Source: Thermoanaerobaculia bacterium (GTDB taxonomy: Bacteria > Acidobacteriota > Thermoanaerobaculia > Multivoradales > UBA5704). Taken from it: a stretch of DNA of 64,000 bases. Location of the stretch: the NCBI GenBank assembly GCA_044866775.1, contig JBIOUG010000010.1, positions 9,052 to 73,051 of the forward strand, written 5' to 3'. Position numbers and translations under genes: made by a program. This document shows positions 15,001 to 24,440 of the stretch, one piece after another (position 1 is the first letter of the stretch; every line of letters starts with the position of its first letter). The notes under the pieces are model-generated. The model did not search any database, had not been told where the DNA came from, and worked only from the letters and a program-made list of their open reading frames with translations.

Positions 15001-18000
15001 GTTCCAGAACCTGCCGGTCGAGGTCGCGCCACTGCCCGGGCTGCACGTGACGCCGCTGAGCGTCTACACGGGGGCCTCGAAGTTCGAGCTCACGCTCACT
15101 CTCGTCGAGAGAGCCGACGGCGGCCTCGGCGCATGGCTCGAGTACAACCGCGACCTCTTCGACGCGACGACGGTCGAGCGGCTCTTCGAGCACTACCGGG
15201 CGCTTCTCGCCGGCGTTGCGGCGGACGCGACGCGGCCGCTGTCGGAGCTGCCGTGGTTCACGGATGTGGAGCGGCACCAGCTCCTGGCCGAGTGGAACGA
15301 CACGCGACGCGAGGACGGCGACGCCGCGTTGGTGCATGAGCTGGTCGCCGAGTGGGTGCGGCGGCGGCCGGAGACGGTGGCGGTGGCGGGCGGGGGCGAG
15401 CGGCTGACCTACGCCGAGCTGGAGCGGCGGGCGGACGCGCTCGCGGCGCGGCTGCGGGCCCTCGGCGCCGGGCCCGAGACCCTGGTCGGGATCGCCCTCG
15501 AGCGCACGCCGGCGATGGTCGTTGCGGTGCTGGGCGTCATGCGGAGCGGCGCGGCCTACGTGCCGCTCGATCCGTCGCACCCGAAGGAGCGGCTGGGGCT
15601 GATCCTCGAGACGGCGCGGCCGCTGGCATTGGTGACACAGGCGAGCCTGGTGGCAGAGCTGCCCGAGCACACGGCGGAGGTGGTGCTCGTCGACCGTCCC
15701 GAGGGGGTTCTCGCCACCGATCTCGTCGTCTTCGCCGCGTCGCCACCCGCCGTCCAGCCGGAGCAGACGGCGTACGTGCTCTTCACCTCGGGCTCGACCG
15801 GAAGGCCGAAGGGCGTGCAGGTGCCGCATGGCGCGCTCGTCAACTTCCTGCTGTCGATGCAGCGCGAGCCGGGGTTCGGCGAGGGCGAGGCGTTGCTCGC
15901 CGTGACGACGCTGTCGTTCGACATCGCCGAACTCGAGCTCTTGCTGCCCTTGATCAGCGGCGGCCGGGTGGAGCTGGCGACGCGCGAGGAGGCCGCCGAC
16001 GGCGAGCTCCTCCAGCGGCGGCTGCGCGAGTCGGGCGTGGCGGTGCTCCAGGCCACGCCGGCGACCTGGCGCCTGCTGCTCGATGCGGGCTGGGAGGGCG
16101 ACGAGCGGCTGGTGGCGCTCTGCGGCGGCGAGGCGCTGCCGGGAGAGCTGGCGGTGCAGCTCCTGCCGCGGGTGGGCGCGCTATGGAACATGTATGGCCC
16201 GACGGAGACGACGATCTGGTCGGCGACGCGTCGCGTGCTCGCGGCGGAAGCAGCGGAGGCGACGGTGCCGGTCGGCGGCGCGATCGCCAACACGCAGCTC
16301 TACCTCGTGGACCGCGAACTCCAGCCGGTGGCGGTGGGAGTGGCGGGGGAGCTGGCGATCGGCGGCGCGGGTCTGGCGCGCGGGTACCTCGGAGCGCCGG
16401 AGTTGACGGCGGAGCGGTTCATGCCGGATTCGTTCGCTGCCGGGCCGGGAGCGCGGATGTACCGGACGGGCGATCTCGTGCGGTGGCGGGCGGACGGGCG
16501 GATCGACTTCCTGGGGCGGATGGATTTCCAGGTCAAAGTGCGGGGCTTCCGCATCGAGCTCGGGGAAATCGAGGCGGCGCTCCTGCGGCATGGGCACGTG
16601 GCGCAGGCGGTCGTGGTGGCGCGGGACGGAGAAACAGCTCAGGTAGGGAAGCGGCTGGTGGCCTACGTGGTCCCGCGGCGAGAGCAGGCCACTACCCTTG
16701 TAGGGGCGGAGCTTGCCTCCGCCCCGACGTCCGGCGCCGATCAGGCCAGGGCGGAGACAAGCTCCGCCCCTACAAGCGCCACCGCGGGGGCGGAGGCCTT
16801 CAAGGAGCTGCGCGCGTGGCTCGGGGCTCAGCTCCCCGACTACATGGTCCCCTCGGCGTTCGTGGTGCTCGACGCCTTCCCGCTCAATCCGAGCGGCAAG
16901 GTCGACCGCAAGGCGCTGCCGGCGCCGATCGCTGAGGCCGCGCCGGACGTCGACTACGCGGCGCCGCGCTCGCTGACCGAGGAGCTGCTGGTCGAGATCT
17001 GGGCCGACGTGCTCGGGCGCCCGCAGGTGGGCGTCTCTGACAGCTTCTTCGACCTCGGCGGCCATTCGCTGCTGGCGACGCGGGTGGTCTCGCAGGTGCG
17101 GCGGGCTTTCGGGGTGGAGCTGCCGTTGCGGCGGCTGTTCGAGCGGCCGACGGTGCGCGAGCTGGCCGCCGGCATCGACGAGGCGCTCCGCGGCGGCGAG
17201 GCCGCGCCGCAGGGTCCGCCGCTGGTCCCGGTGCCGCGGACGGGAGACCTGCCCCTCTCCTTCGCCCAGGAGCGGCTGTGGTTCCTCGAGCAGCTCGACC
17301 CCGAGAGCGCGGCCTACAACATGCTCGCGGCGTGGGTCCTCGAGGGCGCGCTCGACGTCGCGGCGCTGGCGGCGGCCGTGGACGGGGTGGTGCGGCGTCA
17401 CGAATCGTTGCGCACCGTCTTCGCGCCCGCCGCCCACGGCGCGGCGCAGCGCGTCGTGCCCCATGCGCCGGCGCCGCTGCCGCTGATCGATCTGCGGGCG
17501 CTGCCCGAGCCCGCCCGCAAGGCCGCCGCCCGCGCGCTGGCGCAGGCGGAGGCGGCGCGCGGGTTCGACCTGGCGCGTGGTCCGCTCTTCCGCCGCGCGC
17601 TCCTGCGACTGGCGGGCGGCGGCGGCGACGCCGCCGCATCGGCCGAGCACGTGCTCCTCCTGACGCTCCACCACATCGTCACCGACGGCTGGTCACAGGG
17701 CATCCTGGCCGCCGAGATCGCGGCGCTCTACAACGCCTTCGCGGCCGGCGCGCCGGACCGTCTGCCCGAGCTGCCCGTGCAGTATGCCGACTTCTCAGCC
17801 TGGCAGCGGTCGGCGTTGACCGCGCCAGTCCTGGAGCGGCAGGTGGACTTCTGGCGCCGCGAGCTGGCGGGGGCGCCGGCCCTCCTCGAGCTGCCGACCG
17901 ACCGCCCGCGCCCGGCGGTGCAGACCTTCCGCGGCGCGCGCCTGGCGCGGCGCCTGCCGGAGCCGCTCGCGCGGGAGCTGCGGGCGCTCGGCCGGTGCGA

Positions 18001-24346: not shown

Positions 24347-24440
24347 AGCGGGTGTACGCAGCGCTCGCTGCACCGCTCTGTTTCCAGCATCGGACATCGT
24401 AGAAAAAACGAGTACGGGCAGACCGCCGGCCCCCCGGCCG
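17200..24440 (+). repeat. Left copy of a roughly 7.2-kb segmental duplication (C-A-PCP-KS-AT-ACP-TE plus about 95 bp of 3' flank); partner at 40990-48420
   Basis: Encoded proteins are co-linear and near-identical over most of the span (by eye roughly 85-90 percent aa identity; not computed). The similarity continues past both stop codons (CGCAGCGCTCGCTGCAC..CATCGGACATCGTAGAAAAAACGAG versus CGCAGCGCTCGCTGCACAGC..CCGGACATCGTAGAAAGAACGAG). Confidence 0.85.
20550..24346 (+). other. Terminal PKS module with no reductive domains plus thioesterase (KS-AT-ACP-TE) of ORF1
   Basis: KS active-site Cys in VQTACSTSLVAVHLA. AT GHSIGEY with HAFHS, which by the established AT motif code is malonyl-specific. 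No KR, DH or ER motifs lie between AT and ACP. TE GGASMGG. Confidence 0.85.

Follow-up and report, generated by a model that had tools for sequence, protein, structure and literature searches.

A 64,000-nucleotide (nt) stretch of a contig from a Thermoanaerobaculia bacterium (JBIOUG010000010.1, positions 9,052 to 73,051 of the forward strand; assembly GCA_044866775.1), which we call the window and number from its first letter, encodes two neighboring assembly lines that join nonribosomal peptide synthetase (NRPS) modules to a terminal polyketide synthase (PKS) module. The window has a G+C content of ~73%, and its first 48.3 kb consists of three long plus-strand open reading frames (ORFs): ORF1, which carries line 1 and is open at the 5' edge, and ORF2 and ORF3, which carry line 2 and lie 8 nt apart from stop to start (Table 1). 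Modules are named M1 to M7 in ORF1, N1 and N2 in ORF2, and N3 to N7 in ORF3. Written as condensation (C), adenylation (A), thiolation (T), sulfotransferase (ST), methyltransferase (MT), ketosynthase (KS), acyltransferase (AT), acyl carrier protein (ACP), and thioesterase (TE) domains, ORF1 reads [A Gly]-T / C-A(Thr)-T / ST-C-A(X)-T / C-A(Ala, MT insert)-T / C-A(Gly)-T / C-A(Ser)-T / KS-AT-ACP-TE, ORF2 reads A(Ser code, FkbM-type MT insert)-T / C-A(Leu code)-T, and ORF3 reads C-A(Ala)-T / C-A(Ser)-T / C-A(X)-T / C-A(Ser)-T / KS-AT-ACP-TE. Pfam and motif scans of both lines gave totals of 10 C, 12 A (one truncated), and 12 T domains, with the NRPS hallmarks HHxxxD(G) in C domains, core motifs A3, A8, and A10 in A domains, and the GGxS phosphopantetheine (Ppant) site in T domains. 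The tails of both lines contained the KS motifs TACST, HGTGT, and NLGHL (Cys-His-His), the AT motifs GHSIGE and HAFH, the ACP motif LGGSS, and the TE motifs GASMGG and GDH; we take the presence of HAFH and GHSIGE in both AT domains to mark the malonyl type. No ketoreductase, dehydratase, or enoylreductase domain was present in the terminal PKS module of either line.

Table 1. Window coordinates of the two assembly lines and of the segments that they share or that distinguish them (aa, amino acid; dS, synonymous divergence; p4, divergence at four-fold degenerate sites, as defined in the text).
Feature	Position	Strand	Parts or counterpart	Basis or value
ORF1 (line 1)	2-24346	+	5' end open at window edge	ORF list, translation, Pfam
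ORF2 (start of line 2)	24664-30780	+		Pfam, specificity codes
ORF3 (rest of line 2)	30789-48311	+		Pfam, specificity codes
M1.T-M2.C and start of A	1286-3598	+	ORF3 33819-36128 (N3.T-N4.C)	73.8% nt identity
CurM-type ST domain	4936-5844	+	303 codons; T-C linker of M2/M3, ORF1 only	
M3 (C-A-T)	5845-9226	+	N5, 37587-40946	79.4% nt, 77% aa, dS 0.55
N4 A core	36084-36620	+	From A3/P-loop onward; M2 equivalent ~3548-4130	Sliding identity
ORF1-specific two-module segment	9100-17060	+	3' half of M3.T, M4, M5, 5' half of M5.T	Three-way sliding identity
M6 (paralog of N6)	C 17243-18607, A 18680-19765, T 20285-20479	+	A-domain code DVWHISLVDK	Pfam, code
M7	20552-24346	+	KS 20552-21691, AT 22151-23005, ACP 23378-23569, TE 23678-24322, stop 24344-24346	Pfam
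N6	C 41016-42368, A 42528-43601, T 44247-44441	+		Pfam, code
N7	KS 44502-45641, AT 46119-46967, ACP 47355-47546, TE 47643-48287	+		Pfam
Youngest layer, ORF1	22601-24461	+	Mid-AT to 115 nt past stop	p4 0.197, dS 0.27
Youngest layer, ORF3	46590-48426	+	Includes 115-nt flank 48312-48426	
Shared post-stop flank, ORF1 copy	24347-24461	+	115 nt	Alignment to 48312-48426

A-domain specificity codes were extracted by alignment to GrsA-PheA and assigned to the residues that we presume from published codes. The predicted order of incorporation in line 1 is ...Gly, Thr, X (DPRNFVHRAK), Ala, Gly, Ser, and then one malonate; in line 2 it is Ser, Leu, Ala, Ser, X (DPRNFVHQAK), Ser, and then one malonate. The uncommon code DPRNFVH(R/Q)AK belongs to paralogous plus-strand A domains in M3 (7454-8548) and N5 (39153-40268), codes akin to it occur in other Thermoanaerobaculia NRPS contigs (DPRNFVLRAK in L049, DPRHFGFQAK in L010), and its basic residues hint that the substrate may be acidic. 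Methyltransferases interrupt two further A domains. The loading A domain of ORF2 (code DVWHISLVDK) is split between A8 and A10 by a member of the FkbM family (PF05050, E = 1e-14, 26317-26887, plus strand), which suggests a methylated serine as the starter, and the M4 A domain (Ala code) is split at ~12362-12737 by a class-I methyltransferase.

An earlier preliminary description of this DNA had assigned ORF1 to the end of one line and ORF2 plus ORF3 to a second, complete one, and the loading A domain, the 8-nt gap, and the separate TE domains agree with that assignment and support two separate predicted NRPS-PKS lines. Line 2 carries its own loading module, with ORF2 beginning in an A domain without a C domain, and line 1 occupies a single continuous ORF of at least seven modules that ends in its own TE; the system therefore appears to be parallel rather than bifurcated. 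Since all catalytic motifs are present in both lines, each should release a product of its own, predicted to be a peptide with a C-terminal serine extended by one malonate, and release could occur by hydrolysis or by lactam or lactone formation. Ends of the KS-AT-ACP-TE type lengthen the final amino acid by one malonate, and either a beta-keto acid or a five-membered lactam can be released; althiomycin-type ends and the cyanobacterial ends that form pyrrolinones or tetramates may be comparable. ORF1 also contains an older internal repeat of ~5 kb, in which positions 1-4777 are 69% identical to 15541-20371 (plus strand), aligning A(Gly)-T-C-A(Thr) with A(Gly)-T-C-A(Ser). This repeat and a family of related C domains in M4, M5, M6, and N6 (65-71% aa identity) suggest that the line grew through earlier module duplications.

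The 3' ends of ORF1 and ORF3 are homologous over C-A-T-KS-AT-ACP-TE, the architecture that the preliminary description had given for both intervals. A BLASTN comparison of positions 1-24600 with 24601-49000 aligned 20119-24461 to 44096-48426 (85.3% over 4378 nt), 18648-20019 to 42493-43855 (82.0%), and 16807-18645 to 40583-42409 (80.0%). Codon alignment of 17222-24343 with 40989-48308 gave 84.5% nt and 83.6% aa identity, with dS of 0.41, a nonsynonymous divergence (dN) of 0.10, and dN/dS of 0.25. At the protein level, identity between M6 and N6 was 80% for C, 82% for A, and 86% for T, and the M7/N7 alignment was 85.8% identical with gaps counted. Non-corresponding modules of the window share 58-62% nt identity and the other Ser-activating A domains 66-69%; the likeness of the two ends thus goes beyond that of conserved domains, and the 84.5% found by pairwise alignment lies above the level of below 70% that the preliminary description had named as typical of unrelated modules. 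Its statement that more than conserved domains is shared also agrees with a shared non-coding flank and with four-fold degenerate sites far below saturation, and the similarity is best supported as common descent of the DNA itself. The term near-identical, by contrast, overstated the resemblance. Windows of 150 nt vary between 0.65 and 0.97 in identity, no exact match exceeds 57 nt, and dS is 0.27 even in the most similar 1.85 kb.

Similarity continues beyond the stop codons for slightly longer than the ~95 bp first noticed. In the flank, 95 of 115 nt match (82.6%; 24347-24461 aligned to 48312-48426), versus only 70 of the next 115 in the same optimal alignment. A flank scan found no terminator-like site in 24250-24750, the terminator-like site near ORF3 lies 190 nt past the shared tract, and Rfam and tRNA scans of the whole window gave no match. 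A structured RNA in the flank was considered and rejected, the fold z-scores being +0.56 and +1.05. With no terminator, no unusual fold, and no Rfam match, conservation of the flank is best read as that of neutral DNA that probably hitch-hiked with the tract.

Homology between the lines does not stop at a discrete 7-kb segment, as had been proposed, but runs colinearly through no less than 23 kb of ORF1 and falls into several divergence layers, which indicates that the duplicated unit was most of an assembly line. Blocks occur in both lines in the order T-C, a differing A, T, C-A-T, and then C-A-T-KS-AT-ACP-TE. Paired C domains are 72% (M2/N4), 71% (M3/N5), and 80% (M6/N6) identical in aa sequence, paired A domains are 82% identical (both M3/N5 and M6/N6), and paired T domains are 79% (M1/N3), 59% (M2/N4), 70% (M3/N5), and 86% (M6/N6) identical. 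In a domain identity matrix, non-paired domains are mostly 33-55% identical, the exceptions being repeated families: the C domains of M4, M5, M6, and N6 mentioned above, Ser-activating A domains (61-65%), and most T domains (50-78%). The preliminary description had recognized upstream matches both in a carrier-condensation block and in the following module, and BLASTN bears these out at 73.8% for the former and 75.9% for the latter (5845-10734 aligned to 37587-42385). It had also singled out the motif HHIVTDDWS, which, among the ten C domains, is indeed found only at nt 2120 and 34647. In these two plus-strand copies (M2, 2114-2146; N4, 34647-34673) an Asp replaces the usual Gly, the other eight C domains having DG, and the M2 copy has a third His just ahead (THHHIVTDDWS).

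Three differences interrupt this colinearity. One is the A domain of M2 and N4, where a Thr code (DFWNIGMVHK) in M2 faces a Ser code (DVWHISLVEK) in N4 at 47% aa identity. Sliding identity places the replaced segment in the A core: the N4 core is 75-85% identical in aa sequence to the Ser cores of M6, N6, and N1 and 30-40% identical to its positional paralog in M2, versus flanks that match M2 at 75-92% over most of the C domain and at 70-78% toward the T-domain end. The mosaic structure with A-domain swapping that had been postulated for the upstream region is therefore real at this site. Another difference is a segment of two modules found in ORF1 only. ORF3 shifts from M3-like (86-88%) to M5-like (72-77%) at ~40812-40860, within the Ppant-site motif of the N5 T domain, and a switch at this position implies that the two-module difference arose by recombination within T domains. 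The remaining difference is the ST domain in the linker between M2 and M3. The equivalent ORF3 site (37587-37603), at the paralogous Ser module junction, has no ST domain. Residues 54-337 of the insert, taken as query, matched the CurM/OLS sulfotransferases with E = 3e-63 (PDB 4GBM) and 4e-59 (4GOX).

The layers are evident from synonymous sites, a comparison of which between shared and unshared blocks the preliminary description had proposed. We defined p4 as the proportion of third-position differences at four-fold degenerate codons for the same amino acid in both copies; between unrelated modules it reaches 0.49-0.51, the saturation level. Values for corresponding blocks descend from 0.47 for the C domains of M2 and N4, near saturation, through 0.34-0.43 for M3/N5 (A domains 0.43) to 0.29-0.32 for the M6/N6 C and A domains and for KS and AT (the T-domain value of 0.43 comes from only 37 sites), and then to 0.20 in the AT-ACP linker, 0.11 in ACP, and 0.21 in TE. 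A maximum chi-squared scan of 1343 sites from M6 to the stop codon located a breakpoint after ORF1 nt 22600 (ORF3 ~46590), in the middle of the AT domain, with p4 of 0.343 on the left (n = 972) and 0.197 on the right (n = 371; chi-squared 27.1, reached in 0 of 500 permutations). A second breakpoint within either tail layer was not significant (p = 0.46 and 0.82). The same succession appears in NG86 estimates of dS: the last 1.85 kb has 0.27 and the older tail 0.46, as against 0.55 for M3/N5 and 0.73 for M2.C/N4.C. Constraint on the protein does not account for layering at such sites. Divergence of the non-coding flank, at 17%, is like that of the youngest layer, and the lowest block value of K4, 0.13, falls in ACP. 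In every block dN/dS is 0.19-0.27, which is the signature of purifying selection on both copies.

Relatives were sought by comparing the tail with 5.8 billion proteins, 185,579 genomes, and JGI metagenomes. The best outside tail matches were 53-59% identical in aa sequence, many of them from Thermoanaerobaculia metagenome-assembled genomes (MAGs), versus 84-88% between the ORF1 and ORF3 tails. A partial protein, P0058, matched at 71% in the search and at 68% to ORF1 and 66% to ORF3 by direct comparison. For module N5 the best outside match was 56%, versus 77% for M3/N5. As these searches returned no sequence close to either tail, the two lines appear to be lineage-specific paralogs.

An outgroup for the tail came from L163, a 17.4-kb JGI contig of a related species that holds a homolog of the MurJ gene of the window (P0122, 88% aa identity) and is syntenic with window positions 46.5-64 kb. 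L163 begins with the AT-ACP-TE end of the positional ortholog of ORF3, upstream of the same VCPO-like and RlmL genes. Housekeeping genes of the window and L163 differ by p4 of 0.15-0.32 (pooled ~0.26; K4 0.18-0.49). Over the same codons, the L163 tail has p4 of 0.341 to ORF3 and 0.335 to ORF1, versus 0.204 between ORF1 and ORF3, and for the last 1.8 kb the paralogs have a K4 of 0.25 to each other and of 0.51-0.52 to L163. Informative sites in this 1.8 kb group ORF1 with ORF3 at 227 positions, ORF3 with L163 at 82, and ORF1 with L163 at 75, and no sub-region favors the pairing of ORF3 with L163. The window tails are sisters relative to L163 and, by these estimates, coalesce at roughly half the depth of the L163 split. 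Homology between ORF1 and ORF3 stops at ~48424 and homology between ORF3 and L163 resumes at ~48427, ~3 nt away, and the TE gene of L163 departs from ORF3 eight codons before the ORF3 stop and continues for 27 further codons (L163 1753-1843), over a region that is intergenic in the window. Between the junctions lie 43 nt in L163 versus 142 nt in the window (48286-48427). Local and gapped-global alignments of these two segments, judged against shuffles, revealed no homology (p = 0.31, 0.65, 0.37, 0.94), and descent of the 43 nt as a deleted remnant of the 142 nt was unsupported.

We consider it probable, though well short of certain, that an old duplication of a whole line was followed by diversification and, later still, by one or more gene conversions at the 3' end. 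In this history, an ancestor would have duplicated most or all of one NRPS-PKS line in tandem, and the copies would then have diversified through replacement of an A core (Thr versus Ser), gain or loss of two modules within T domains, and insertion of the ST domain in a T-C linker. Their 3' ends would have been re-homogenized at least once by non-reciprocal recombination (gene conversion), the latest event spanning the last 1.85 kb (mid-AT, ACP, and TE) together with the 115-nt flank, and both lines would have stayed functional, making two related predicted peptides with nearly the same TE. The last 1.85 kb appears to coalesce after the split from the L163 species (p4 0.20 versus 0.34). Upstream p4 values of 0.43-0.47 exceed the 0.34 of the L163 tail, which suggests that the duplication is older than that split, and p4 in the older tail (0.343) equals that in the L163 comparisons (0.335 and 0.341), as this history predicts. 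The L163 tail would then be the true ortholog of the original ORF3 tail, and one of the present window tails, that of ORF3 or that of ORF1, would have been replaced by a copy of the other once the species had separated. Copying of the ORF1 end with its flank into the ORF3 locus would create both boundaries in one event; the alternatives seem to need two independent events with a shared endpoint.

Several points weigh against this history or loosen its details. No relative carrying both lines was found in genome, metagenome, and protein searches, where the matches listed for the tail and N5 were proteins of at most ~2,200 residues, a length that may explain the absence of giant ORFs. The proposed direction from ORF1 to ORF3 is read from a single feature, the coincidence of boundaries, and a conversion tract with its end in non-homologous flank calls for an illegitimate junction. 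L163 ends 32 nt to the left of the breakpoint and so covers the youngest layer only, synonymous rates vary two-fold among the housekeeping genes (p4 0.15-0.32), and a duplication before the species split is argued from p4 values above 0.4, which approach saturation. Almost as good a fit comes from a duplication roughly contemporaneous with the species split plus a single conversion. Every version compatible with the data has one or more exchanges after duplication; the only version without any invokes rate heterogeneity alone.

That version posits a single duplication after the L163 split with no exchange, the 3' gradient reflecting domain-specific rates or constraints. We regard it as unlikely, although it correctly predicts tails that are sisters relative to L163 with symmetric branches (82 versus 75 sites), and both the two-fold spread of housekeeping p4 and the top ranking of ACP and TE in protein conservation (93-98%) speak for it. 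The step, however, emerges from four-fold sites where both copies encode the same amino acid, base composition is much alike in all blocks (b 0.52-0.59), and the change is sudden and lies halfway through the AT domain rather than at a domain border. The non-coding flank is equally low in divergence, and the older tail and upstream blocks are at least as diverged as the tails of the two species. Rate variation also leaves unexplained why the shared tract ends where orthology with L163 resumes. Exchange without an initial duplication is the opposite extreme: the lines would have been built separately and would have traded T-C units, a module, and the 3' end repeatedly, so that layers record dates of transfer, a view near to the segmental duplication that the preliminary description had put forward for the 7-kb end. 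NRPS modules are known to swap pieces (PMC8097286), divergence does differ between layers, modules N1-N3 have no colinear partner in ORF1, and the N3 A domain matches that of M4 out of order (73%). Against these observations stand the same order and orientation of blocks over more than 20 kb, broken by one two-module indel and one domain insert, an arrangement that independent transfers are unlikely to preserve, and the age of even the 3'-end transfer (dS 0.46). We judge a history of block exchange quite improbable.

An assembly artefact, in which one copy or one join is a chimera made between repeats by the metagenome assembler, is extremely improbable. The source contig is metagenome-assembled, the named relatives are MAGs only, exact shared runs of 40-57 nt exist, and an independent k-mer assembly breaks in such a run, at 48234. 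The copies nevertheless differ at ~15% of positions, so that they represent neither a collapsed nor a duplicated read set, their frames stay open for 24.3 and 17.5 kb, dN/dS is ~0.25, and there is no abrupt switch to 100% identity of the kind that a crossover chimera would give. Moreover, the independent assembly yielded a Logan contig (L164, SRR30692710) that is 100% identical to 48234-53602 and spans the last 25 codons of ORF3, the shared flank, and the downstream genes. It starts inside a 48-nt exact repeat shared with ORF1, where a k-mer assembler is expected to break, and L163 has the same junction between tail and housekeeping genes in another species. Collapse of repeats in assembly was rejected on the same ~15% difference and L164 match.

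Duplication followed by later conversion thus remains the history that we prefer, and it retains only part of the interpretation given in the preliminary description. Common descent, two lines, a mosaic upstream region, and some form of gene conversion, which best explains the breakpoint, K4 values, and site patterns of the 3' end, all stand; a recent duplication, ongoing conversion, and a discrete 7-kb unit do not, just as the homology of the ends was real and only its degree exaggerated. Divergence is too great for recent duplication: dS is 0.27-0.46, and most of the tail has diverged to the same extent as its ortholog in another species (K4 ~0.5). Tracts of near identity, as ongoing conversion would leave, are absent. 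The conversion itself appears to be old.

Beyond 48.6 kb the window holds housekeeping genes for RlmL, TerC, ApaG, a glyoxalase, RNase D, MurJ, and a TonB-dependent receptor. After one match of 100%, the next relatives of MurJ are 60-88% identical and include proteins of Thermoanaerobaculia MAGs, which places the source among the uncultured acidobacteria in or near this class. Exact look-ups gave no match for ORF2 or TerC and only short Logan contigs (SRR30692710) for MurJ, the glyoxalase, and the VCPO-like gene. The last of these encodes a 590-aa protein next to ORF3 (48678-50450, plus strand; L163 2054-3820) that is assigned to PF22778 (VCPO_2nd) in precomputed matches; our Pfam scan of this protein gave no match. 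It keeps its position after the tail gene in L163, with 75% aa identity, and could be a tailoring enzyme or unrelated to the assembly lines. A 366-aa sulfite-oxidase-like molybdopterin oxidoreductase (52353-53453, plus strand; PF00174 and PF03404 in precomputed matches for contigs L163 and L164) is nested in a longer open frame and for that reason escaped our GC3-based gene list.

Assembly lines make many antibiotics, re-engineering of such lines works poorly, and copies that stand side by side show which cut points nature has tolerated. Four cut points can be mapped here to within tens of bases: the P-loop, where the A-core swap begins; a Ppant site, where two modules were gained or lost; the T-C linker that took up the ST domain; and the mid-AT boundary of the proposed conversion. 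The locus is also evidence that Thermoanaerobaculia possess large NRPS-PKS lines that seem to be functional; for this class our literature search found no characterized natural products. The C-A-T-KS-AT-ACP-TE end is recurrent in this class, being shared by Thermoanaerobaculia contigs L001-L003, whose tails are only 53-59% identical to those of the window and whose last-residue codes (DLYDxxLVWK) are unlike the Ser codes of both window lines.

The ST insert of ORF1 resembles the activating ST domains of CurM and OLS over its full length but differs from them in setting. In CurM and OLS the domain lies between the ACP and TE of a PKS; in ORF1 it lies between the T domain of an NRPS module predicted to carry Thr and a C domain, so that the order is T-ST-C rather than the ACP-ST-TE of decarboxylative elimination. 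Metagenomes contain many ST relatives embedded in NRPS, with 1159 cluster representatives at E<=1e-30, and uncharacterized examples include A-T-ST-C in P0369 and T-ST-TE in P0363. Our literature search found no description of an NRPS T-ST-C domain acting on carrier-bound Thr. A bolder reading, which we hold to be distinctly doubtful, treats the two lines as a natural before-and-after engineering pair, in which (a) copying from ORF1 to ORF3 may have synchronized the release end of two otherwise diverging lines and (b) the ST domain may have installed chemistry new to NRPS. If (a) were true, synchrony of AT-ACP-TE would imply selection for a shared off-loading module, with copying that ends at an illegitimate junction 115 nt past the stop. 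Under (b), the ST domain and the Ser-to-Thr core change may act together, the beta-hydroxyl of carrier-bound Thr being sulfated as a leaving group, for example for formation of dehydrobutyrine or of a ring.

Gene conversion homogenizes repeated domains of modular synthases as well as other bacterial paralogs, a process of concerted evolution for which PMC9205934 cites Santoyo and Romero (2005). The window resembles such cases in having paralogs that resemble one another more than they do the positional ortholog of a sister species and in having a discrete synonymous breakpoint. Unlike active conversion in some PKS, whose domains are >97% identical, its tract is old (dS 0.27).

The remaining parallels concern the upstream differences and the arrangement as a whole. 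Swapping of Acore subdomains has been described for many bacterial NRPS (Baunach et al., 2021; PMC8097286). As in those cases, C, the C-A linker, the start of A, Asub, and T are similar between M2 and N4, and the core is replaced from A3 onward, with a Thr versus a Ser code; unlike in those cases, the likely type of donor, the other Ser cores (75-85% aa), resides in the same cluster. The closest precedent for the locus is the NRPS for wollamide and desotamide, in which the paralogs wolG1 and wolG2 are adjacent in one locus and 80.9% identical, and in which an A core of wolG1 was replaced by intragenomic recombination starting at the P-loop (PMC9205934). Booth et al. (2022) also discuss the parallel lines for BE-18257 and pentaminomycin, and note that parallel pathways can result from duplication and that gene conversion may obscure the traces of such events (PMC9205934). 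Like wolG1 and wolG2, the paralogs of the window lie side by side, at 74-85% nt identity versus a background of 58-69%, and one copy has a swapped A core. Unlike them, they comprise most of a six- to seven-module NRPS-PKS line rather than a bimodular gene, and line 2 has a loading module of its own, so that the system is parallel rather than bifurcated. They also differ from the wol system by a two-module indel and an added ST domain, and they come from an uncultured acidobacterium with no product linked to them. Line duplication, A-core replacement by intragenomic recombination, and the blurring effect of conversion have thus all been described before, and the value of the locus is as a clean example rather than as a new principle. 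What it adds to these known systems is a large, well-resolved case in an unstudied phylum, in which a T domain, a T-C linker, and an AT domain each hold a junction that can be mapped.

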